Of a stretch of 64,000 nt of DNA, positions 52,846 to 64,000 are shown in pieces. The DNA comes from an uncultured Gemmatimonadaceae bacterium (GTDB lineage: Bacteria; Gemmatimonadota; Gemmatimonadetes; Gemmatimonadales; Gemmatimonadaceae): NCBI GenBank assembly GCA_963817955.1, contig CAWFQK010000001.1, positions 160,001 through 224,000 on the forward strand. The letters run 5' to 3'. Both the position numbers and the translations under genes were made by a program. The notes beneath the pieces were generated by a model. The model was not told the origin of the DNA. It was given only the letters and a program-made list of their open reading frames with translations, and made no database searches. Numbering within the stretch: the stretch's first letter is position 1; every line of letters begins with the position of its first letter.

Positions 52846-54792
52846 TCAGACCGCCGCGCACCGCGCCGCCTGAGCGTCCACAATGGCGCGCAGTAAGGAT
52901 GGCGCGGCGAACGGCTTCTGCACGAATACCGCCCCCGTCGGAAGTGCACCACTGCGTATCACCGCGTCATCCGTGTATCCCGACATGAGCACCGCCGCAA
53001 ACGTAAATCCCGCCTCACGCAGGGCGGAGATCAGCGCCGGCCCGTTCATCTCCGGCATCAGGGCGTCCGTCACCACGATGTCCATGGGCGGCGCGGCGGC
53101 ATGCGCCATGTCCAGCCCCTCACGCCCATTACACGCCTCGAGCACCGTATAGCCCCCTTCGACCAGCATTCGCTTCGCGACGGCACGCACCTGCTCGTCG
53201 TCTTCGACGAGTAGGACCACTCCCTTCGCCATCGGCCTCTCGGGCCGGACGGCGGCAGTCCCTCCCGAGTCCAGGACGTCGCGCTCGGCTCGAGGGAGCA
53301 AGACGCGAAAGCGCGCTCCGTTGCCCGGCGAGCTGTCGACCTGAATGAAGCCGCCGGACTGCTCCACGATCCCGTGCACCGTCGCGAGGCCGAGGCCGGT
53401 TCCCTTCCCTTGCTCTTTGGTCGTGAAGAACGGCTCGAACACTCGACGTCGCGTCTCCTCATCCATTCCTTGCCCCGTGTCGACCACGGTCAGCGCGACG
53501 TAATCGCCGGGTACCGGTTCGTTGGCCACGCCGCCGAGGGCCGCACCCTTGGACTGGATGCGCAGATTCGAGGTGCTGATCGAGAGCGATCCACCCCCCG
53601 GCATCGCGTCGCGCGCATTCACCGCCAGGTTCAGCAGCACCTGCTCGATCTGTGTCCGGTCGGCGAGCACCCGGTGCAAGCCACCGGCACACTCCACGGT
53701 CAGCGTGATATGCTCGCCGATCAATGGGCGCAGCATGCTCTCCATCGCGACACAGACCACATTCAGATCGAGCACGCGCGGCGCGAGCACCTGCTGCCTG
53801 CTGAACGCGAGCAGTTGGCGCGTGAGTGATGTGGCGCGCACAGCGGCGCGCACGATCTCGTCGGCGTCGTCGTGCATCGGGCTCGCCGGATTGAGATCCT
53901 CGCGCAGCATTTCGGCGTGCGCACTGATGATGGTGAGCACGTTATTGAAGTCGTGCGCGATGCCGCCGGCCAAGCGCCCCACGGCCTCCATCTTCTGCGA
54001 CTGGCGCAGCCGCTCGTCGCGCTCCCGCAGGGCTCGCTCGGCCTCCGCAGTAGCCTTCGCTCCAGCAATGATCCGGCGCGTCAACGACATCCCAATCAGC
54101 ACGAGAGCGATCGCCACGACCGTCGAGATGGACAGCAGGACCTCGCGCAAAGTGCGCGTGGCGTCGCGCAGCGCACCCGAAAACAATTGCGTCATGGAGC
54201 TCAGCATCAGATCGTCATGCTCGATCTGATTGAGCTCGCGCTTGACCGTCAGGGTCTCTCCGCGGGCGTGCGCAGCCACGAGTCGCCCAAGGCTGGCGTC
54301 GATCGAATCGATCAGTACGTCAGCCCGCATCCAGATCCTCGCCGCGCGCGCAATGTCGCTCTCGCGACGGGCAATCCGGTAGTAGGCCGCCATGAGGTCC
54401 GCGTCCTCCGGATCGTTGCCACCGCGGACGAATGCTGCGGTAGCGGCACGATGGTCTGGGCGATCACTCTCCAGGATATCGCGAGCCTGTCGGTCCCCAA
54501 GGGAGATCTCCCGCGCGCGGGAATAGGCGGCGAGATCGGCGCTATCACCGGTATTGACGAACCGCTCAATGGCAAGAACGCCGTCCTTCTGCGCCCGCGC
54601 CCAAGTGCTCTCGCCGCGATTGTACGACGAAACCGTGAGCATTGCGGTCATGCCGACGTAGAGCAGCGCGAGCAGCAACCCAATCGCGGCCGGGAACGCC
54701 AACGCCGCAGGACCCGGCGATGGGTTCGTCAGAATTCGACGGAGGGACTGACGGAATAGGCGAAATGACTGGCTGGGAGGGAGGGGGCCCAT
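52846..54792 (-). CDS. Membrane-bound hybrid sensor histidine kinase/response regulator
   Basis: Two TM helices, [11 protein letters not shown] sensor, [27 protein letters not shown]. Confidence 0.93.
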
Positions 54793-54907
54793 GAAGATGA
54801 CAATGGTCGGCGTCGACCGAATTGGTCAGGAAAGGAGGGATTGAGAGAGTCTCGGTCGATCTGACGGTCGGGTTAGGGGGTGGAATGACTGGTTACTAGA
54901 TGAAATC

Positions 54908-55259
54908 TGACGGCGCGAACTGCTAACGGCGCTGACTCCCTGACGGCGCTGACTCCCTAACGGCGCTGACTCCCTAACGGCGCTGACTCCCTAACGGCGC
55001 TGACTCCCTGACTGCGGCTTACGGCGGCTTACTGCGTTTGCGGCGCTGACTCCCTGGCGGCGGTTACTGCGCCAGCATCGCTGACCGATCCGAGGTCGCG
55101 TATTGAAGGTGGCCTTACGTCCGCCGTAAGCCGCCGTTCGCGCCGTAAGCCGCCGTCAGGGAGTTGGCGCAGTCAGGGAGTTAGCGCCGTTCGGGAGTCA
55201 GCGTAGGTAGGGAGTCAGCGCCGTCAGGGAGTCAGCGCCGTTAGCAGTTCGCGCCGTCA
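54908..55259. mobile_element. Palindromic 17-mer element, copy 1
   Basis: Arms of (ACGGCGCTGACTCCCT[A/G])n and their reverse complement around a unique core at 55064-55126. Confidence 0.85.
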
Positions 55260-55805
55260 ACACTTCTCGTGTTCAGACCAATTTCTTACCATCTCCCGTT
55301 GCGATTCAGTCTGCGGCGATCCCGACCCTTGCAGCGAGCGAATCTTTGCGGGCGACATCGTCCGGAATAATTCGGTGACCTGACGCAGCGCTTCATCGCC
55401 AGTGACGCCCTGTCGAACGAGCCAGCATCCCACCACTGTACCGGTGCGACCGACCCCTCCCCAGCAGTGAACGTAGACCACCCGTCCGCGATCTACCTCC
55501 GCAGCGATATGGTCGAGGATCTCAAGCATCTCACTGTGGGAAGGCACATCCATGTCGCGGATCGGCATGCGCAGATACGACACGATAGCGCCGGTTCTCG
55601 CCGCGATGTCGTGGAGCATCGGCTCGTACGGCTGCAGTGGGTCCTGCGTCGTGGTGAGATCGACGAACGAGTTGACCCCCGAATCGAGTACGAGGAGCAG
55701 CCTGGTGAGCGCGGTCCTCTCGGAATGCGCACCGGGATACTCGCCCGCGGCGATCCGCCGGTCGGGGAGCCAGTATGAATTGGGAATTGGTGGCGGGTGT
55801 TTCAT
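55257..55805 (-). CDS. Dual-specificity/tyrosine protein phosphatase
   Basis: AGEYP, PIRDMDVP, VHCWGGVGRTG (HCx5R), SPQTESQ. Confidence 0.9.
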   Translation of the reverse strand: MKHPPPIPNSYWLPDRRIAAGEYPGAHSERTALTRLLLVLDSGVNSFVDLTTTQDPLQPYEPMLHDIAARTGAIVSYLRMPIRDMDVPSHSEMLEILDHIAAEVDRGRVVYVHCWGGVGRTGTVVGCWLVRQGVTGDEALRQVTELFRTMSPAKIRSLQGSGSPQTESQREMVRNWSEHEKC

Positions 55806-55943
55806 GAGACATCACCGCGAGGCGAACTCGAGGATGGTGAGAGAGCGGACATTGGCATCGTTTGAAAATTCGCCATGTGTTCCCACTCGGGCAAATCTGT
55901 CCCCAGTTGCTACCTGATCTCTTCGAAGAAGCCGCGACTACAA

Positions 55944-55987
55944 TTGACCTCAAACTGTCGGTACTTGACCTCAAACTGTCGGTACTT
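55944..55987 (+). repeat. Perfect 21-bp tandem duplication
   Basis: TTGACCTCAAACTGTCGGTAC x2. Confidence 0.9.
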
Positions 55988-56384
55988 CATGCGCCGGCTC
56001 CAGTTCGATGACCGGCGGGGTAGCGAAGAGTTGCGAGGTGACCAGGGTCGTGCACCCACCCGGCTACGAACGCGTCCGCGGTTGCGGTCCCCGCCAGCTG
56101 CATCGCGATGTTCTCCCCACTCCGTCGAAGCGGCCGCCGACTGCGCAAACACGCTCGGCGGGAGTGACATGTTCGGGTATCGGCGATGTGTGAGAGAAGA
56201 AGTGGTACTGCCCCATGGCTCGGCTGTGGCATTCCGCGGCGACGCCGAGCGTGTCGCTCCAGCATAGCGCCGATCGGCCATTGCGTTTCCGAACCGCATT
56301 CACGCGCTCATGAATCGCCTGGATGAGCGCCGTTGATTGCGCCATCGCTCGACACTGGAAGACTGTCGAATCGTCTCGTGCCAT
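55987..56384 (-). pseudogene. CAP/SCP domain gene, frameshifted and truncated
   Basis: VNAVR...AAECHSRAM...FFSHTSP...VG|ENIA...GWVHDPGH across two frames; join at a G4 run, 56115-56118. Confidence 0.7.
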
Positions 56385-56796
56385 GGTGCAACTACCACGA
56401 GGCGACGAAGATGATGATCGCGCCTCTGATGCCAATCGTGCTGGACATGTCTGGTGTTCTGACAGTCGTTTGCGCAAGGTATATGAGGTGCTCGATGTCG
56501 ACCGTGAGCGGACCTGGCTATCGTCGCCAGGCGAAGTTCAGCGCAATGGACTGCTCGGTATTCCGCACACAAGATCTGTCACACGATTTGAAGTTTCAAT
56601 TGTTTCGCAGCAAGAGTGATCGATATGGAGTTCTCAATTGGGGAATGGCTACAATCGGATCTGGAGGAAGCAGCCAGGATGTTCTCGGATGAAGTAGGCA
56701 GGAATGCTCTCGGACGAAGCGGCTAGGCTGTTCCCGCTGGTCTGAGGTTGTCCGCGCCGTTACCAACCAATTCCGCCTCTGCGCTGTCCAACTGTC

Positions 56797-59331
56797 ATGC
56801 TCGCTCAACCTCTCCTCGCTCGCTGGCGCGATTCGCTGGCCCAGGACCTCCGCTACTCGCTCCGCGGTCTCCACACACGCCCGGGCTTCGCCCTCATCGT
56901 CGTCTTCACCATTGCACTCGGCGTCGGCGCCGATGCGACGATGTTCGGTGTCCTCGACCGAATCCTTTTCCGCGCGCCGGACCAGATCCGCGATCCCGAT
57001 CGCGTGGTACAGGTCGAGACGCATTCTGCCGGATCCGCGTATTGGCAGTCGAGCTGTTCCTACGCGACGTACACCGATTTTCGCGATCAAGCGGCGGGTT
57101 TCGACGGCGTTGCCGCCACGTACTCCGGGGGATATTTCCCGTTGGATCGTGGGTCGAGCGCGTCTCGCGTCGCGGGTTCGCTCGTGTCGAGCAGCTTCTT
57201 TTCAACGCTCGGCGTCCGCCCGGCGGCGGGTCGCTTCTTCTCGGCCGACGAGGACAACGTTGCCTCTGCAGGAAACGTCGCCGTCATCGGTTACGGATTC
57301 TGGCAGCGGCATTTTAACGGTCGTGAGAGCGCGCTTGGGCAAACGCTCAACATTGGCGTTCAGCGGTACACGGTAGTCGGTGTCGCGCCCAAGGGGTTTA
57401 CCGGCGTCGATCTCAATGATGTAGACGTCTGGCTGCCGATCACCGCTCCGTCCGGGTTGCGCTTCGACAACTCGCCGGGCTGGACGAAGAACCGCCACGC
57501 GAATTGGCTGCACATCGTGGCGCGACTCAAAGGTGCGGAATCCGTGCAGCTCGCTACCCAGCAGGCGACTGCAGTGCATCGCGGGGCGCTCCGGCAGCAG
57601 ATCGCGGAGGACCCGAAGGCCGCACGATATATCAAGCCGGATTCCGAGAGCGTGGTGCTCGCGTCGCTCATCCCGGGCAAAGTCAGCCCGGGAATGAGTG
57701 CCATCGGCCATAGTGTGAAGGTATCGCAGCTGCTCGGTGTCGTCTCGCTGATCGTGCTGATCATCGCCTGCGCGAACGTGGCAAATCTACTGCTCGTTCG
57801 CGCGTTCAACCGTCAGCGCGAGATCGTCGTGCGGCTCGCCCTCGGCGTCAGTCGCGGCCGACTCATCACCCAACTCTTGGTCGAAGGCCTGGTGTTGGCG
57901 ACGCTCGGCGGCGGCGGCGCATTGCTCGTCGCACACTGGACTTCCCAGTCGGTGCGGATCTGGTTGCTCGGCGCGGGCGCGTGGACGGCGGAGGCTGTGG
58001 ATGGGCGACTGCTGGCGTTCACCGCGGTGGCGACACTGGTCACCGGGTTGGTGACGTCGCTCGTGCCCGCGCTCCGCGCGAGCCGCACGGATCTCGCGCA
58101 GGCGCTCAAGCAGGGAGTTCGCGAAGGCGGAGGACAGCGCTCGCCACTGCGCGCCGCACTGCTCATGCTACAAGCGGCGCTTGCCATCGTGATGCTCACC
58201 GGCGCGGGACTGTTCATTCGAAGCGTACAGAATGTCAACGCGCTGCCGTTTGGCGTAGACGTGGACCACGTACTCGTTGCCGACATCGCGCACGCGAGCG
58301 CCGGGCTCACGACCGAGGAAGCGCGCCGCCTGTATGACGACTTCAATCGGCGCGTTCGCAGTGTGCCCGGCGTGAAGTCGGCGGCGGTGACGATCGGATT
58401 GCCGTTCGGACTGTCGTGGAGCACCAGCGTTGCCGTTCCGGGCCGAGTGCTTCCGAAAACCGAGCAGGAGCCGGTGCAGTACGCCGTCACGCCAGACTAC
58501 TTCACCACGATGGGAATCCGTCTGCGCGGCGGCCGTGCGTTCACGGTGGGCGACCGGATGGGCACGTTGCCGGTGGCAATGATCAACGAAACGATGGCGA
58601 CGTTGTACTGGCCGAACCAGAATCCGGTGGGTCAGTGCGCCAAGATCGACGCGGACACGATGCCATGCACCACGATCATCGGCGTGGTGGGAAACACGCG
58701 CCGTCAGAACCTCGTGGAGGGTCTCGTTCCGCAACTCTACCGCCCACTCGATCAGCTACCGACGTCGGCAATCGATCACACGGTCTCTCACTTCGGCTAT
58801 GAGCTGGTGGTCAAGACCGACGGCGACCCGGCGCGCCTGGTCGAACCGGTGCGCCGCGCGATCCACGCTGCTGCCGCCGTGGTGCCGTACGCCAACGTCC
58901 GCCCGATGCGCGATCTGCTCGATCGGCGCATGCGTTCCTGGCAACTCGGCGCACGGGTCTTCTCGGCTTTCGGCGCCCTCGCGCTCGTCCTCGCGGCGGT
59001 CGGGCTGTACAGTGTACTCGCATTCACGATCGCTCAACGGACGCATGAATTCGGACTGCGAGTTGCGCTGGGAGCCCAATCGGCGGACATCGTTCGCGTG
59101 GCGTTAGCGACCGGCCTCGCGCCGGTCGTCGGCGGAATCGTGGGAGGGGTATTGCTGTCGCTTCTATCGGGGAAGTTCGTTGCCGGGTTGTTGTTCGGGG
59201 TGTCGCCACGTGATCCGATGGTATTGGCGGGAGTGGCTGGGATTCTGTTGGTGACCGGGATAGTCGCGAGTGTGGGGCCGGCTTTGAAGGCGGGGAGGGG
59301 GGATCTGGTTCGGGTGCTTCGGGAGGAGTAG
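56797..59331 (+). CDS. Duplicated MacB/FtsX-type ABC permease (ADOP-like orphan permease)
   Basis: QDLRYSLR, IACANVANLLL, REIVVRLALG, QRTHEFGLRVALGA. Confidence 0.93.
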   Translation: MLAQPLLARWRDSLAQDLRYSLRGLHTRPGFALIVVFTIALGVGADATMFGVLDRILFRAPDQIRDPDRVVQVETHSAGSAYWQSSCSYATYTDFRDQAAGFDGVAATYSGGYFPLDRGSSASRVAGSLVSSSFFSTLGVRPAAGRFFSADEDNVASAGNVAVIGYGFWQRHFNGRESALGQTLNIGVQRYTVVGVAPKGFTGVDLNDVDVWLPITAPSGLRFDNSPGWTKNRHANWLHIVARLKGAESVQLATQQATAVHRGALRQQIAEDPKAARYIKPDSESVVLASLIPGKVSPGMSAIGHSVKVSQLLGVVSLIVLIIACANVANLLLVRAFNRQREIVVRLALGVSRGRLITQLLVEGLVLATLGGGGALLVAHWTSQSVRIWLLGAGAWTAEAVDGRLLAFTAVATLVTGLVTSLVPALRASRTDLAQALKQGVREGGGQRSPLRAALLMLQAALAIVMLTGAGLFIRSVQNVNALPFGVDVDHVLVADIAHASAGLTTEEARRLYDDFNRRVRSVPGVKSAAVTIGLPFGLSWSTSVAVPGRVLPKTEQEPVQYAVTPDYFTTMGIRLRGGRAFTVGDRMGTLPVAMINETMATLYWPNQNPVGQCAKIDADTMPCTTIIGVVGNTRRQNLVEGLVPQLYRPLDQLPTSAIDHTVSHFGYELVVKTDGDPARLVEPVRRAIHAAAAVVPYANVRPMRDLLDRRMRSWQLGARVFSAFGALALVLAAVGLYSVLAFTIAQRTHEFGLRVALGAQSADIVRVALATGLAPVVGGIVGGVLLSLLSGKFVAGLLFGVSPRDPMVLAGVAGILLVTGIVASVGPALKAGRGDLVRVLREE

Positions 59332-59333
59332 AG

Positions 59334-59761
59334 GACAGCGCGAAGCGCTGACGGCGCGAACGGCTGACGGCGCTGACTCCCTAACGGCGCGAACGGCTGA
59401 CGGCGCTGACTCCCTGACGGCGCCGACTCCCTGACTACGCCAACTCCCTGACAGCGCTGACTCCCTAACGGCGCTAACGCCCTGACGGCGGCTGACGGCG
59501 GCTGACGGCGGCTTACTGCGTTTGCGGCGCTGACTCCCTGACGGCGGTTACTGCGCCGGCATCGCTGACCAATCCGAGGTCGCGTACAGAAGGTGGCCTT
59601 ACGTCCGCCGTTCGCGCCGTTCGAGCCCGCCGTAAGCCGCCGTCAGGGAGTCAGCGCCGTTAGGGAGTTGGCGCCGTTAGGGAGTTAGCGCCGTCAGGGA
59701 GTCAGCGCCGTCAGGGAGTCAGCGCCGTCAGCCGTTCGCGCCGTCAGCGCTTCGCGCTGTC
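59334..59761. mobile_element. Palindromic 17-mer element, copy 2
   Basis: TIR GACAGCGCGAAGCGCTGACGGCGCGAACGGCTGACGG; core 59548-59610; lies between convergent stops. Confidence 0.85.
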
Positions 59762-61553
59762 AACCCATCACGCGATTTCGGCCCGCCCCCTTCGCCTCAT
59801 ATAACTTCCCGTCCGCCTTTTCCAGCGCCGCCCAAGCATTGTCGCCCGCCATTCCATCGGCGAGCCCGATGCTGATGGTGACGCGAAGGCCGGTGGCAAT
59901 CGTGGCCCAGTCGTACCGTTCGATGGCCGCGCAAATGTCGTCACACACGCCACGCGCGTCGATGAGGGTGGTCTCGACAAAGAGCAATGCGATCTCCTCA
60001 CCGCCGTACCGCGCGACGACGTCGACCCGCCGAGTGCGTTCGTGAAAGATCTTGGCGACCGTGCGCAGGACCTGGTCGCCTATGGCGTGCGAGAATTCGT
60101 CGTTGATGCTCTTGAATCGATCGAGGTCGGCAAGCGCTATCGTGAGCGGGTGCCCGAATCGACGCGATCGCTCCCATTCGATGGGCAGCCGCTCGTCGAG
60201 ATCCCGACGATTGCGAAGCCCGGTGAGTGCGTCTTCGCGACTGCGGCGCTCGAGCTGGATGGCCTGCGCTTCCAACTGCCTCACCAGTTGCGACTTTTCG
60301 GCGTTCGCCGCGTCCAGCTGCGCGTTTCGTTCTCGGAGGAATTTGGCTTCGCGCTCTTTCTCCCGTAACTCCATCTGCACCATGGCGCTCAGCACCCGTC
60401 GCTCGGCGTCCGCGCCCCGTAGCTCCTCGTGCAGGGTATGGTACTCCTTGAAGTGCCGGAGGGCGGGCTCCCCCTGACCGAGGGTCTCGTATACGGTGAA
60501 CAGCGCCCGATGGATGTCGGCCCGCTGTTGGCGCGATCCGCCCGCGCGGTTGACAGCGAGCGCCTCCATCAGCGACGTCAACGCCGCGTCATGTTGGCCA
60601 ATACGCGCGAGCGTTTCACCGATCTGAAGGTGCGCCTCCGCATGATGGCCCCCGAGGTGCCGCGCCTCACTCGTGGCGTGGACCTCCTGGAGAATGCTGA
60701 GGGCGCCCTTGAAATTGCCGGCGTCGCGGCGGAGCAGCGCGATGTTCTCCAGGATCTCGACTTCGGCGTCGGCATGGCCTGCTTGGCGTGCGAGCTGCAG
60801 GCCGGCATCATAGTGCTTGAGGGCAACGTCAGGATTGCCCAGACGAGCATAGGCAAAGCCGACGTTGCTCTGGGCGAGCGCGGCATTCAGGGTCTCGCCG
60901 CGGCTCAGATAGTCGGCCAAGGCGCGCTCATGAAAGTGCAGGGCCTCGTCGTCCTGTCCAAGCGCTCCGAGCGCCGAGCCGATGTTATGCACGGTCCAGG
61001 ATATTCCCTGGTTGTTACCGAGTTCCTCAAAGAGGTCGGTGCTTGCGCGGTACTGTTCGAGGGCTGGCGCGATCTCGCCCGCGACGGCATGGACACCGCC
61101 TAGTGCGCAGCGCGTTTCCGCTTCACCGGCTTTGTCGCCAAACTCGCACTGGAGCTCGAGCGCGGTGAGGTAGAATCGAGCGGCTTCGTAGCAGTCGCCG
61201 AGACTCTGATGCACGCGACCCAGGACGGTGAGCGTCGCGGCGCGCTCTGTCGTCTCGCCGAGTCGATCGAAAATCGCGCACGCGGCGGTCGCATCCTGGA
61301 GGGCACCGTCGAGATCGAGCAGCCGTGATCGGCACGCCGCACCCGCGCGCAACGCCCGTGCCTCCCCATGGCGATATCCGGCGGCGCGAGCGAGGGATAA
61401 TGCCTCTGCCGCCAGAGACAGTCCGTCAGCCCCGCCGGTAAACCGCATGGCGTCGGCGCGGGTGGTCAGCGCATCAATATGCTGCGCGACGTCAAGGGTG
61501 ACGCCTGCAGCATTGCTTCCCTCATATGACGTACTGAGGTCAAGCTGCTCCAT
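59760..61553 (-). CDS. TPR-containing diguanylate cyclase
   Basis: TPR-like helical repeats; DALTGLRNRR, DLDRFKSIND, RRVD I-site, RYGGEEI; ATG 61553 chosen because the longer ORF starts inside a repeat. Confidence 0.9.
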   Translation of the reverse strand: MEQLDLSTSYEGSNAAGVTLDVAQHIDALTTRADAMRFTGGADGLSLAAEALSLARAAGYRHGEARALRAGAACRSRLLDLDGALQDATAACAIFDRLGETTERAATLTVLGRVHQSLGDCYEAARFYLTALELQCEFGDKAGEAETRCALGGVHAVAGEIAPALEQYRASTDLFEELGNNQGISWTVHNIGSALGALGQDDEALHFHERALADYLSRGETLNAALAQSNVGFAYARLGNPDVALKHYDAGLQLARQAGHADAEVEILENIALLRRDAGNFKGALSILQEVHATSEARHLGGHHAEAHLQIGETLARIGQHDAALTSLMEALAVNRAGGSRQQRADIHRALFTVYETLGQGEPALRHFKEYHTLHEELRGADAERRVLSAMVQMELREKEREAKFLRERNAQLDAANAEKSQLVRQLEAQAIQLERRSREDALTGLRNRRDLDERLPIEWERSRRFGHPLTIALADLDRFKSINDEFSHAIGDQVLRTVAKIFHERTRRVDVVARYGGEEIALLFVETTLIDARGVCDDICAAIERYDWATIATGLRVTISIGLADGMAGDNAWAALEKADGKLYEAKGAGRNRVMG

Positions 61554-61650
61554 CCTACTGTTCAGCCCATCCTGGTCGTCGGTCACAACTGTGCTCCGCC
61601 GGATCATCCCACGTCGGGGTATAGTAGCGTTTGCTAGTGACAATTCCAAG

Positions 61651-62047
61651 GACGGCGCGAACGGCTGACGGCGCTGACTCCCTGACGGCGCTGACTCCCT
61701 ACCTACGCTGACTCCCGAACGGCGCCAACTCCCTGACTGCGCCAACTCCCTGACGGCGGCTTACGGCGGACGTAAGGCCACCTTCTGTACGCGACCTCGG
61801 ATTGGTCAGCGATGCCGGCGCAGTAACCGCCGCCAGGGAGTCAGCGCCGCAAACGCAGTAAGCCGCCGTAAGCCGCAGTCAGGGAGTCAGCGCCGTTAGG
61901 GAGTCAGCGCCGTTAGGGAGTCAGCGCCGTTAGGGAGTCAGCGCCGTCAGGGAGTCAGCGCCGTTAGCAGTTCGCGCCGTCAGGGAGTCGGCGCAGTCAG
62001 CCGTTCGCGCCGTTAGGGAGTCAGCGCCGTCAGCCGTTCGCGCCGTC
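61651..62047. mobile_element. Palindromic 17-mer element, copy 3 (core inverted)
   Basis: Core 61764-61826 is the reverse complement of the cores of copies 1 and 2. Confidence 0.85.
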
Positions 62048-64000
62048 AGAGACGCCACTCTCTCTACCCTCCCCTCAACCGGTTGTCCCGACACCCCTCC
62101 AATCACTTTCGCATACTCCTCCACTTGCCTCCCATACCGCTCGTATCTCGCCGACCATCCAGCATCGTCGACAACGTCGGTCTTCCAGTCGACCACACTC
62201 CATCCATCCGGGCCAACCGCGGCGGCATCGATCACGCCTTCGGTGATCGTCTCGACGCCATCACGCTCGGCACTTGCCATGATCGCTAACTCCACATGCA
62301 GCGTGCCGGCTGCCGTCAGGGCTTCCCACGATTCCGATTCCGCCGTTCGTTCGATCAGAGGATAGAGCGCCGCCGACAGCTCTTCGTCCAACCGCTCCTC
62401 GATCGCTACGGCACGCGCGAAGGCGAGGAGCGAATCGCCCCGGCGGCCGCGGCCGAGTGCTGCGAGGCAACGATGAACGGCGGTTCCCCAGGCGGTTCCA
62501 AGTCCCGTTCCATGCGTTGGGCTTTCTGCCGCGACTCGGTCTTCCATTGCGCCCTTTGCTTCCTCAGTGACGGTCACGAAGCGCAGGGATGGCGTGGCGG
62601 CGACGCGAATGCGGGCGGCTGCGTCGTCGGTCGCCTCCATCAGCGACTGGGTGGTGCGGTCCATACACTTGCGGCCGGGAGCGGACTCTACCTTCAGCTC
62701 TTTGGGAATCGCATGCTCATCGAGCATCGGGGCCAGCGGCCGCCACATGGAGTTGTCCAGCTTGGGGGTCGAACTCGTAGCGACTTCACACTGCGCCACA
62801 TAGAGCTCCCGCTTCGCTCGAGTCGCCGCGACGTAAAGCAGACGGGCTCTTTCTGCGTCCTGAAAGCGCGACTCCAGTTCCGCCATGTCGGCCCACTCCG
62901 GCGGCTGCGCCAGCACGTGAGTGTTGTGACCCTGTTGATGGGTGATGGACAAACCTCCCCTGGCACCACCGCTCTCACCGCGCGAAATGTGCACGCGCGG
63001 CTCGAACACCTTTCGGTCGACAGGTTCTGCAAGAATGACCACGTCGGACTCGAGACCCTTTGCCTTGTGCAGATTCATTACGCGCACGACATCGGTGCGG
63101 CCCGGGCGGAGCGGAGCGTCGGCCGCCTCGGCTCTCAGAATGGTTTCGAGGTATTCCATTGCGTCCGGAAGGCCATTCGCCCCCGCCACGGCCGATTCGC
63201 GTAGTGACGCAAGCAGATGGAGCAGCGCACCAGCGCGTGTTTCCCCGAGCGGCTGCGCCGCGGCGTGCAAGAGCAGACCACTCTCGTCCAGAATGCGTTC
63301 GAGAAGAATGTCCGCGGGATGACGTTGCGAGGCTTTCCACCACTCGTGTAATTGCAGCAGCGCGCGGGCTGCTGCGTCGGCCTCGTCGAGTGGCCGATGG
63401 CTGACGGAAAAGCGAATGCCGCGCTGTGATGCGTTCCACAGGTCCGCCGGGCTCATACCAAAGAACAGTCCTTCGAGCGCCGCCACGACGGCAATCGTAT
63501 TGTCCGGATCGGCAAGGGCGCGCAACACCACGAGGAGCTCGCGCAACTCATGCTCCTCTACCAGGCGCGCCCCTGTGGTCGCAACCGGAATGTTTCGCTC
63601 GATGAGCGCACGGGCGTACTGTTCGATGGGCGTCTTGGTCGCGGTGAGCACCATGAAATCGCCGGCTACCTTTTCGCCTTTCGCAATCCTGCCGGCGATG
63701 AAGCTCGCCACCATTGCTGCATCCAACTCGATGACGGCACCCTTTGCTCGCCCAGGTGGACGAACGGCGTATGTATAGACGCCGTCCCTTCCTTCCGGCT
63801 CGTGCTGGGTCTCCATGGGGCGATACGCCGCTTGTTCCGGCGTGGCCATCGCCGGAAACACTTCTGAGAAGTGGCAATTGACCACGGCTTCAACGGAACT
63901 CACCGAGCGGAAATTCGACGTGAGCGGCAGCACGACGCCGAACGCCTCCATGCGGCGTTTCACCAGCTCGTACGTCTCGATGTCAGCACGACGAAATCGG
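61930..64000 (-). CDS. UvrD/AddA-like helicase-nuclease, C-terminal part (5'-truncated by window)
   Basis: RFRRADI, LTSNFRS, MNLHKAKGLE, RLLYVAATRA, GTAVH, GVID...VVDWKT nuclease domain. Confidence 0.9.
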   Translation of the reverse strand, partial: RFRRADIETYELVKRRMEAFGVVLPLTSNFRSVSSVEAVVNCHFSEVFPAMATPEQAAYRPMETQHEPEGRDGVYTYAVRPPGRAKGAVIELDAAMVASFIAGRIAKGEKVAGDFMVLTATKTPIEQYARALIERNIPVATTGARLVEEHELRELLVVLRALADPDNTIAVVAALEGLFFGMSPADLWNASQRGIRFSVSHRPLDEADAAARALLQLHEWWKASQRHPADILLERILDESGLLLHAAAQPLGETRAGALLHLLASLRESAVAGANGLPDAMEYLETILRAEAADAPLRPGRTDVVRVMNLHKAKGLESDVVILAEPVDRKVFEPRVHISRGESGGARGGLSITHQQGHNTHVLAQPPEWADMAELESRFQDAERARLLYVAATRAKRELYVAQCEVATSSTPKLDNSMWRPLAPMLDEHAIPKELKVESAPGRKCMDRTTQSLMEATDDAAARIRVAATPSLRFVTVTEEAKGAMEDRVAAESPTHGTGLGTAWGTAVHRCLAALGRGRRGDSLLAFARAVAIEERLDEELSAALYPLIERTAESESWEALTAAGTLHVELAIMASAERDGVETITEGVIDAAAVGPDGWSVVDWKTDVVDDAGWSARYERYGRQVEEYAKVIGGVSGQPVEGRVERVASLTARTADGADSLTARTADCADSLTARTANGADSLTALTP

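Follow-up and report, generated by a model that had tools for sequence, protein, structure and literature searches.

What leaves the DNA beside a palindromic repeat poor in cytosine on whichever strand reads into it, on both sides and through the ends of neighbouring genes? The question is raised by three palindromic elements, E1, E2 and E3, in a 64,000-nucleotide stretch of an uncultured Gemmatimonadaceae genome (assembly GCA_963817955.1, contig CAWFQK010000001.1, positions 160,001 to 224,000), which is referred to here as the window. An earlier sequence-only reading had described the C-poor tracts, termed halos below, and ascribed them to a repeat-anchored mutagenic process that would diversify the adjacent C-termini. 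All seven of its hand counts were reproduced exactly, including 10 C (with 34 G) in 87 nt at 54821-54907, 15 C and 56 G in 111 nt at 59221-59331 against 20 C in 60 nt mid-gene at 57841-57900, and, on the mirrored side, 12 G in 71 nt at 55260-55330, 17 G in 99 nt at 59762-59860 and 12 G with 54 C in 110 nt at 62051-62160. For the sixth flank (61601-61650; 11 C and 14 G in 50 nt) the count stood, and the weak effect read into it did not, there being none. Among the final 36 permease codons, two have C at the third position, as had been noted (24 have G, seven T and three A), compared with a fraction of 0.41 in the rest of that gene. The halo is real, exact and stronger than first claimed. GC content is nearly kept within it (0.54-0.61 within 100 nt vs 0.64), and it is a swap of G for C with some gain of A and not an AT enrichment.

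The whole genome, comprising 4.53 Mb in nine contigs (C1, C2 and so on below) with a GC content of 64%, was analysed. Members of the 17-mer-array palindromic element, family A, were collected by blastn and a motif scan, which gave 20 arms at about 14 loci and thus 20 outer flanks. Reading toward the element, mean base fractions are C 0.14 and G 0.35 in the first 25 nt and C 0.15 and G 0.45 at 25-50 nt, where the GC skew peaks at 0.51; C then recovers to 0.20 (50-75 nt), 0.24 (75-100 nt) and, at 200-300 nt and beyond, 0.32, with G also at 0.32. On the outward strand C stands at 0.35-0.45 and G at 0.14-0.15 within 50 nt. The distance decay looked for is clear across the 20 flanks, with a decay length of about 75-200 nt and nothing past ~300 nt. 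Skew is positive in 18 of the 20 flanks, the exceptions being E3 on its left side and a single contig 4 flank, and in 13 the 100-nt GC skew is matched by no more than 0.16% of 40,000 random windows (no more than 0.06% for 12 of these). Polarity is mirror-symmetric and switches at the element, and solitary arms carry a halo on their outer side only. The effect is repeat-anchored, local and strand-specific, as had been proposed, and is in addition independent of the orientation of the neighbouring gene: within 50 nt the skew is 0.50 in incoming gene tails and 0.46 in outgoing gene heads, with 0.28 in non-coding flanks.

Of 24 genomes sampled from the genus, 14 carry related 17-mer elements; none of 16 genomes from two sister families does. 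In nine of those 14 (40 loci, 89 flanks, with boundaries cruder than those of family A) skew lies between 0.11 and 0.16 in the nearest 75 nt and is -0.01 at 200-300 nt, 67 of the 89 flanks being positive; in that set the gain is in A, with no rise in T. At gene ends without an element no such depletion is seen (n = 1,772; C 0.31, skew 0.03-0.06), and convergent element-free tails are equally flat (skew 0.042, n = 752). A skew of at least 0.4 was reached by 19 of 2,821 tails, namely 10 of the 268 with repeats downstream and nine of the 2,553 without. These flat controls reject the halo as a general trait of gene ends, convergent pairs or 5' or 3' intergenic DNA. Short-read contigs from public soil runs, which may include the source sample, are letter-for-letter identical to the assembly over 59151-59368 and 62128-62278; four soil or sediment runs hold scattered read-length contigs with this DNA at a depth of 2-3. 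Chance, a hand-count error or an assembly artefact has a negligible probability in our estimate and is ruled out by the exact counts, the outlier position of the flanks against both the random windows and the 1,772 tails, the replication in nine genomes and the identical short reads. Element-free gene ends do carry a small shift of the same sign over their last 33 codons (four-fold C 0.40 to 0.357; AGR from 4% to 8% of Arg codons), which may come from unrecognised hairpins or terminators. The scan also returned a long (GGT)n microsatellite at a gene start (C1:419590-419700) with a skew of 1.0.

Within coding tails beside family A, third codon positions move from C 0.43 to 0.20, G 0.34 to 0.46 and T 0.11 to 0.21, first positions lose C from 0.28 to 0.18, and second positions stay unmoved (C 0.27 to 0.26), with CGN to AGR arginine codons going from 88:4 to 15:15. 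The loss had been placed mainly at third positions; this holds, with synonymous first positions added and second positions untouched. C is lost equally in every dinucleotide context, and no T>A skew accompanies the loss (TA skew -0.03 to -0.07 within 100 nt). Pure cytosine deamination, already doubted by the sequence-only reading, is rejected by this absence and by a toy substitution model in which a raised C>T rate cannot raise G. No k-mer, G-rich ones included, is enriched in the halo beyond composition, which rejects a polar motif resembling Chi or the FtsK-orienting polar sequences (KOPS). Also rejected was the idea that the flanks are a hidden extension of the palindrome, the energies of left/right duplexes lying at z -1.5 to +1.3 against shuffles in eight elements.

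The inward strand has a purine fraction of 0.60-0.67 within 75 nt, and selection might be directed at that strand itself, as R-loop- or G-quadruplex-prone DNA or as a G/A-rich RNA platform (Shine-Dalgarno-like or GGA motifs) ahead of the hairpin. The purine content would suit such selection, as would the loss within the halo (observed/shuffled 1.04) of a genome-wide avoidance of G runs (0.56) and the position of GGGA as top 4-mer, although weakly (z 2.8). However, G runs match their compositional expectation (79 observed vs 76 expected), which rejects selection for G-quadruplexes, no motif stands out, and the halo is equally present at gene heads, where the inward strand is not sense-transcribed. 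We regard this explanation as very unlikely.

Orthologue comparisons bear on whether proteins are altered. The transketolase gene of this genome adjoins an element of a second repeat family (family B, below), and its last 150 nt have a skew of 0.51 and a third-position C of 0.14, the protein tail being conserved. Of 30 loci, 27 from other genomes of the genus were scored, after exclusion of two running off contig ends and one non-homologous tail, and 22 of the 27 have a tail skew below 0.30; among the five at or above it (10 loci inspected), in two the stop codon is directly followed by other palindromic repeats and in three none is evident. At the rng-rplU locus an identical protein tail is encoded differently depending on what lies downstream: mean skew is 0.03 where the spacer is at most 73 nt (nine of nine genomes without halo skew) and 0.18 in 16 genomes, this one included, with an insertion of at least 200 nt, the sampled genomes being related and their counts not independent. 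Since transketolase and rng tails keep their amino acids while codons change, the proposed diversification of adjacent C-termini is not borne out. The mutagenic process that was to drive it fares no better as a conclusion, nothing here distinguishing mutagenesis from selection on composition. Judged from these sequences, what changes with the downstream content is a labile state of silent sites, and the proteins are not diversified. At the same locus, the rplU promoter region (of the GTTGACACAAC ... TAGCTTTACAGGCT type) is near-invariant in 29 genomes of the genus (here C4:306420-306871), and the palindromic element of this genome abuts the -35 box of that promoter. Many relatives carry between rng and rplU a 400-700-nt segment of unassigned content bordered by short tandem arrays.

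The skewed tails without an evident element bring in a further possibility, an insertion or retention bias, under which the skew switch pre-exists and elements insert or survive only there without causing the halo. Three of the five skewed transketolase orthologues would fit it, as would the outer halo kept by solitary arms and a count of adjacent skewed regions at most 60 nt apart in repeat-free DNA, where 27 G>C switches stand against four C>G; a small hairpin marks the switch in several of the 27, and some fall within elements. Such sites are rare, however, given the nine repeat-free tails in 2,553 compared with 10 in 268 beside repeats, and skew is lacking in 22 of 27 transketolase orthologues and in all nine short-spacer rng tails. 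Two element junctions have no halo, and a bias does not account for how the skew arose. We consider a bias of this kind quite unlikely.

The explanation we put forward, at slightly less than an even chance, is that the halos are transcription-insulating tracts that load Rho, resembling Rho utilisation (rut) sites. As RNA, each element would form a stem-loop of high stability, lacking a U tract, at a gene end; for E2 the predicted fold is a single long hairpin (-350.6 kcal/mol, z -24.5 vs shuffles). The ~80-100 nt of RNA that would leave the element in either direction is C- and pyrimidine-rich, G-poor and nearly structureless, which is the definition of a rut site, and the computed mean minimum free energy of 80-nt outward RNA is -10.0 kcal/mol, compared with -24.3 kcal/mol at 320-400 nt (20 flanks). 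Transcripts running through the hairpin would be released by Rho before reading far into the neighbour and then shortened as far as the protective hairpin. With the elements lying between genes, the rut site serving one direction would be antisense to the last ~30 codons of the other gene, and these codons, with some residues, would be forced toward G- and purine-rich choices. The excess of C over G on the outward strand begins at the element edge, where a rut site is expected, and the halo matches the ~80-90 nt of a rut site in size; its nature as a G/C swap that is compositional, unstructured and leaves proteins conserved points the same way. Rho is encoded in this genome, with PF07497 matched above cut-off at C2:841513-841734 and a second open reading frame at C1:65298, and its action at these elements is predicted from sequence. 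The two reading frames with the Rho RNA-binding domain are 641 and 610 aa long.

There is precedent in Escherichia coli, where, according to Dar & Sorek 2018 (PMC6061677), Rho-dependent transcripts end just past stable stem-loops lacking a U tract, with a rut site of ~80-90 nt immediately downstream and a mild enrichment of C over G there. The same source gives a higher C/G ratio downstream of repetitive extragenic palindromes (REPs), citing Peters et al. 2012, and REPs are summarised elsewhere as partly Rho-dependent terminators of 3' untranslated regions and as mRNA stabilisers (bioRxiv 10.64898/2026.03.23.713779). No U-tract terminator was found at E1, E2 or E3, the five terminator-like sites within 54700-62300 all lying off the elements, and a consensus scan of the elements found no sigma-70-like outward promoters.

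Halos are not confined to family A. Family B is a larger modular family of 205 blocks, with heptamer arrays and a conserved core that has its own ~45-nt inverted repeat; blocks lie, for example, at C1:455184-455700, C4:578346-578900 and C2:85141-85265, and some have long poly-G tracts at their edges. Its halo is weaker with the same polarity (C 0.25 and G 0.36 at 0-25 nt, baseline by ~125-150 nt; 321 clean flanks). In family B tails, four-fold sites shift from C to G and A and not to T, and NNY sites are unmoved, a shift that makes the outward RNA more pyrimidine-rich, unlike the signature of deamination. Deamination of an exposed strand predicts a gain of T and a T>A skew, neither of which is seen; a Rho-type architecture fits better. 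Unique perfect hairpins are skewed as well, increasingly with stem length, and the effect rises with palindrome size from 0.01 at 9-bp stems through 0.11 at stems of at least 20 bp and 0.18 in family B to 0.45-0.5 in family A; more than 20 other repeat families in the genome show no such skew. Among unique hairpins the skew is 0.137 ± 0.021 between convergent gene pairs (n = 52 flanks) and 0.03-0.07 otherwise, the skew thus being largest opposite an incoming gene, as would suit rut sites.

Several observations weigh against Rho loading. In both repeat families the halo hardly depends on a called gene reading across (in family B, 0.192 for a tail with nothing opposite and 0.159 for tail/tail), and relative to the sole annotated transcript at E3 the strong halo is upstream and the downstream flank has none. 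Hairpins with T-rich tails are as skewed as those without, and a mutual exclusion between U-tract hairpins and skew was not seen. Selection would need to have fixed some 15-20 silent substitutions in each flank, and to have done so for the majority of copies of a mobile element, and the growth of skew with palindrome size is not predicted by a Rho model. The gene calls behind the tail and head statistics are our own and crude, with imprecise start codons, and a search for public RNA runs carrying this DNA returned none. Elements lying head to head, a candidate transcription-free test, number three, which is not enough for one.

The independence from context, the side of the E3 halo, the T-tailed hairpins and the dependence on size also favour a scar of structure-triggered, strand-polar repair. 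Such element-anchored mutagenesis would require repeated nicks or breaks in the palindrome, made by a transposase or by cleavage of a hairpin or cruciform, and the flank would have to be resected or re-synthesised from one strand, with strand-specific damage or polymerase bias accumulating at sites free of selection. Long palindromic repeats might then be chronic sites of strand-polar processing, in which short-patch re-synthesis by a transversion-prone polymerase, or strand-specific base damage, would rewrite ~100 nt per side at every silent site, making them a bacterial short-range counterpart of break-associated mutation clusters. We hold this rather unlikely as a whole. It would accommodate a polarity that is mirror-symmetric and indifferent to gene orientation and neighbour context, and an effect that rises with palindrome size, and the two halo-free junctions could be young ones. 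Precedents exist in yeast: inverted repeats raise mutation in flanking genes via breaks, Sae2-dependent resection and Pol zeta (PMC3681665), and damage to single-stranded DNA mainly hits cytosines (PMC3799438). SbcD-like, SMC-like and AddA/RecB-like genes are also present. However, the expected C>T signature is missing, with no T>A skew, family B NNY sites unchanged and C replaced mostly by G and A, and a raised C>T rate alone could not lift G in the toy model. The range is ~100 nt and not the kilobases of resection, solitary arms unable to form a hairpin carry halos as strong as those of full palindromes, and in family B the skew is lower in non-coding than in coding flanks (0.10 vs 0.17-0.20).

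The elements, their halos and the genes around them are listed in Table 1. The left halo of E1 takes in the first codons of the sensor kinase gene on the minus strand, with the DNA upstream of them, and the right halo of E1 is the 3' end of the phosphatase gene, C-poor on the coding (minus) strand.

Table 1. Elements E1 to E3, their flanks and the adjoining genes, in window coordinates
Feature	Coordinates	Strand	Description
E1, interrupted palindrome	54908..55259	.	Arms of tandem 17-nt units with terminal inverted repeats; arms 119 nt, 92% complementary
E1 left halo	54770..54907	+	G-rich/C-poor; skew 0.44 (0-100 nt), 0.39 (100-200 nt); peak 0.58 in an 80-nt window
E1 right halo, weaker	55260..55460	-	Skew 0.20, 0.21, 0.12 in successive 100-nt bins
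E2, palindrome between convergent permease and TPR-GGDEF genes	59334..59761	.	Arms 90-98% complementary
E2 left halo, last ~70 permease codons	59121..59333	+	Skew 0.56 (0-100 nt), 0.42 (100-200 nt)
E2 right halo, last ~35 TPR-GGDEF codons, within GGDEF domain	59762..59869	-	Skew 0.46
E3, palindrome	61651..62049	.	Core runs opposite to those of E1 and E2; matches E2 at 83% identity on the other strand
E3 left flank, 5' side of TPR-GGDEF gene, no halo	61551..61650	+	Skew -0.13
E3 right halo, strongest in the window, helicase 3' end	62050..62350	-	Skew 0.66, 0.25, 0.24 per 100-nt bin; plus-strand peak -0.74
E3-arm segment coding the last 39 helicase codons and stop	61930..62049	-	Open reading frame translation
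Hybrid sensor kinase gene	52846-54792	-	Pfam
Dual-specificity phosphatase gene	55257-55805	-	Pfam
MacB/FtsX-type permease gene	56797-59331	+	Pfam
TPR-GGDEF gene	59760-61745	-	Pfam; GGDEF match reaches residue 658 of 661
AddA/RecB-like helicase gene	from 61930	-	Best NCBIfam matches AddA/RecB, below cut-offs

A terminal inverted repeat is common to E1, E2 and E3, whose arms are 89-98% complementary across the three. As multi-copy, non-coding elements with terminal inverted repeats, family A members fit the description of miniature inverted-repeat transposable elements (MITEs) or of extragenic palindromes like REPs and bacterial interspersed mosaic elements (BIMEs). Copies are strongly clustered, with nine arms within 38 kb (C1:214-252 kb) and seven within 26 kb (C4:1133-1159 kb), among signalling genes (kinases, GGDEF proteins, permeases) and with no transposase nearby. 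No target-site duplication was visible at the element junctions inspected, and no transposase domain was found in the 57 distinct neighbouring proteins scanned, the whole genome not having been searched for one. Cargo or a transposase between distant arms was rejected, none having appeared in the neighbour scans, and the nuclease or polymerase gene that the sequence-only reading expected to be flanked by the same repeats was absent among the scanned neighbours, as was a reverse transcriptase (RT) gene so bracketed. Rfam returned nothing above the gathering score over 54500-62500 and two sub-threshold matches at chance level. A metagenome scan with the TPR-GGDEF protein retrieved 80 loci and no close strain (best identity 48%), and one distant match to the helicase in 30 other genomes of the genus allowed no comparison of orthologues beside E3.

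The repetitive C-terminal tail of the AddA/RecB-like helicase is supplied by E3, the reading frame stopping inside the element; at C4:1133675 the stop codon of another gene likewise falls in an element terminus, and the flank there has no halo. Between 5 and 9 kb past the end of the window (C1:228906-233170), near the palindrome cluster and the AddA/RecB-like gene, lies an overlapping gene pair that may encode an SbcCD-like hairpin nuclease. It comprises a metallophosphoesterase with weak matches to the SbcD/Mre11 N-terminus and a 993-aa protein whose sole match is an SMC-type N-terminus.

If the halos load Rho, mobile palindromes together with factor-dependent termination would determine which codons, and in part which residues, fill the last ~30 positions of adjoining genes, a mild signal in E. 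coli would become a strong and testable rule, and such terminators could be read from sequence alone in the poorly studied Gemmatimonadota. If they are mutational scars, palindromes would mark chronic sites of damage and repair in bacterial chromosomes and represent a new local mutational force. On either account, extreme local GC skew near repeats should not be taken for a sign of horizontal transfer or for a replication landmark. No description of gene recoding beside bacterial repeats was found in literature on palindrome mutagenesis, Gemmatimonadetes repeats, REP/BIME elements and Rho, clustered mutation of single-stranded DNA, ImuB/DnaE2 spectra or bidirectional Rho terminators.

Among known systems, diversity-generating retroelements share the concentration of changes in the last ~100 nt of a gene beside a hairpin. 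They differ in that here no RT domain was found among the scanned neighbours, there is no template repeat and the sequence of the flanks is unique; it is C that is affected and not A, both flanks and non-coding DNA are involved, and protein sequence is conserved. In yeast, mutation clusters at resected breaks likewise switch polarity at a structure-forming site and affect the cytosines of the strand ending 3' at the break, but they are dominated by C>T and extend over kilobases, whereas the halos lack a T>A skew, span ~100 nt and gain G and A. REP and BIME elements are palindromes too, extragenic and multi-copy, which lie at the ends of genes and often separate convergent ones, and their termination is partly Rho-dependent; family A belongs to another sequence family, with 17-nt tandem units and much longer arms, and recoding of flanking genes is not mentioned in the abstract on REP/BIME elements. 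The Rho-dependent gene ends of E. coli share a gene-end hairpin lacking a U tract, an unstructured downstream tract of ~80-90 nt with C over G, and a link to REP-type palindromes. Unlike these ends, where the enrichment is mild, the putatively Rho-dependent halos reach skews of 0.5-0.7 on both sides, recode the last ~30 codons of the neighbouring gene and surround MITE-like palindromes of 350-520 bp.

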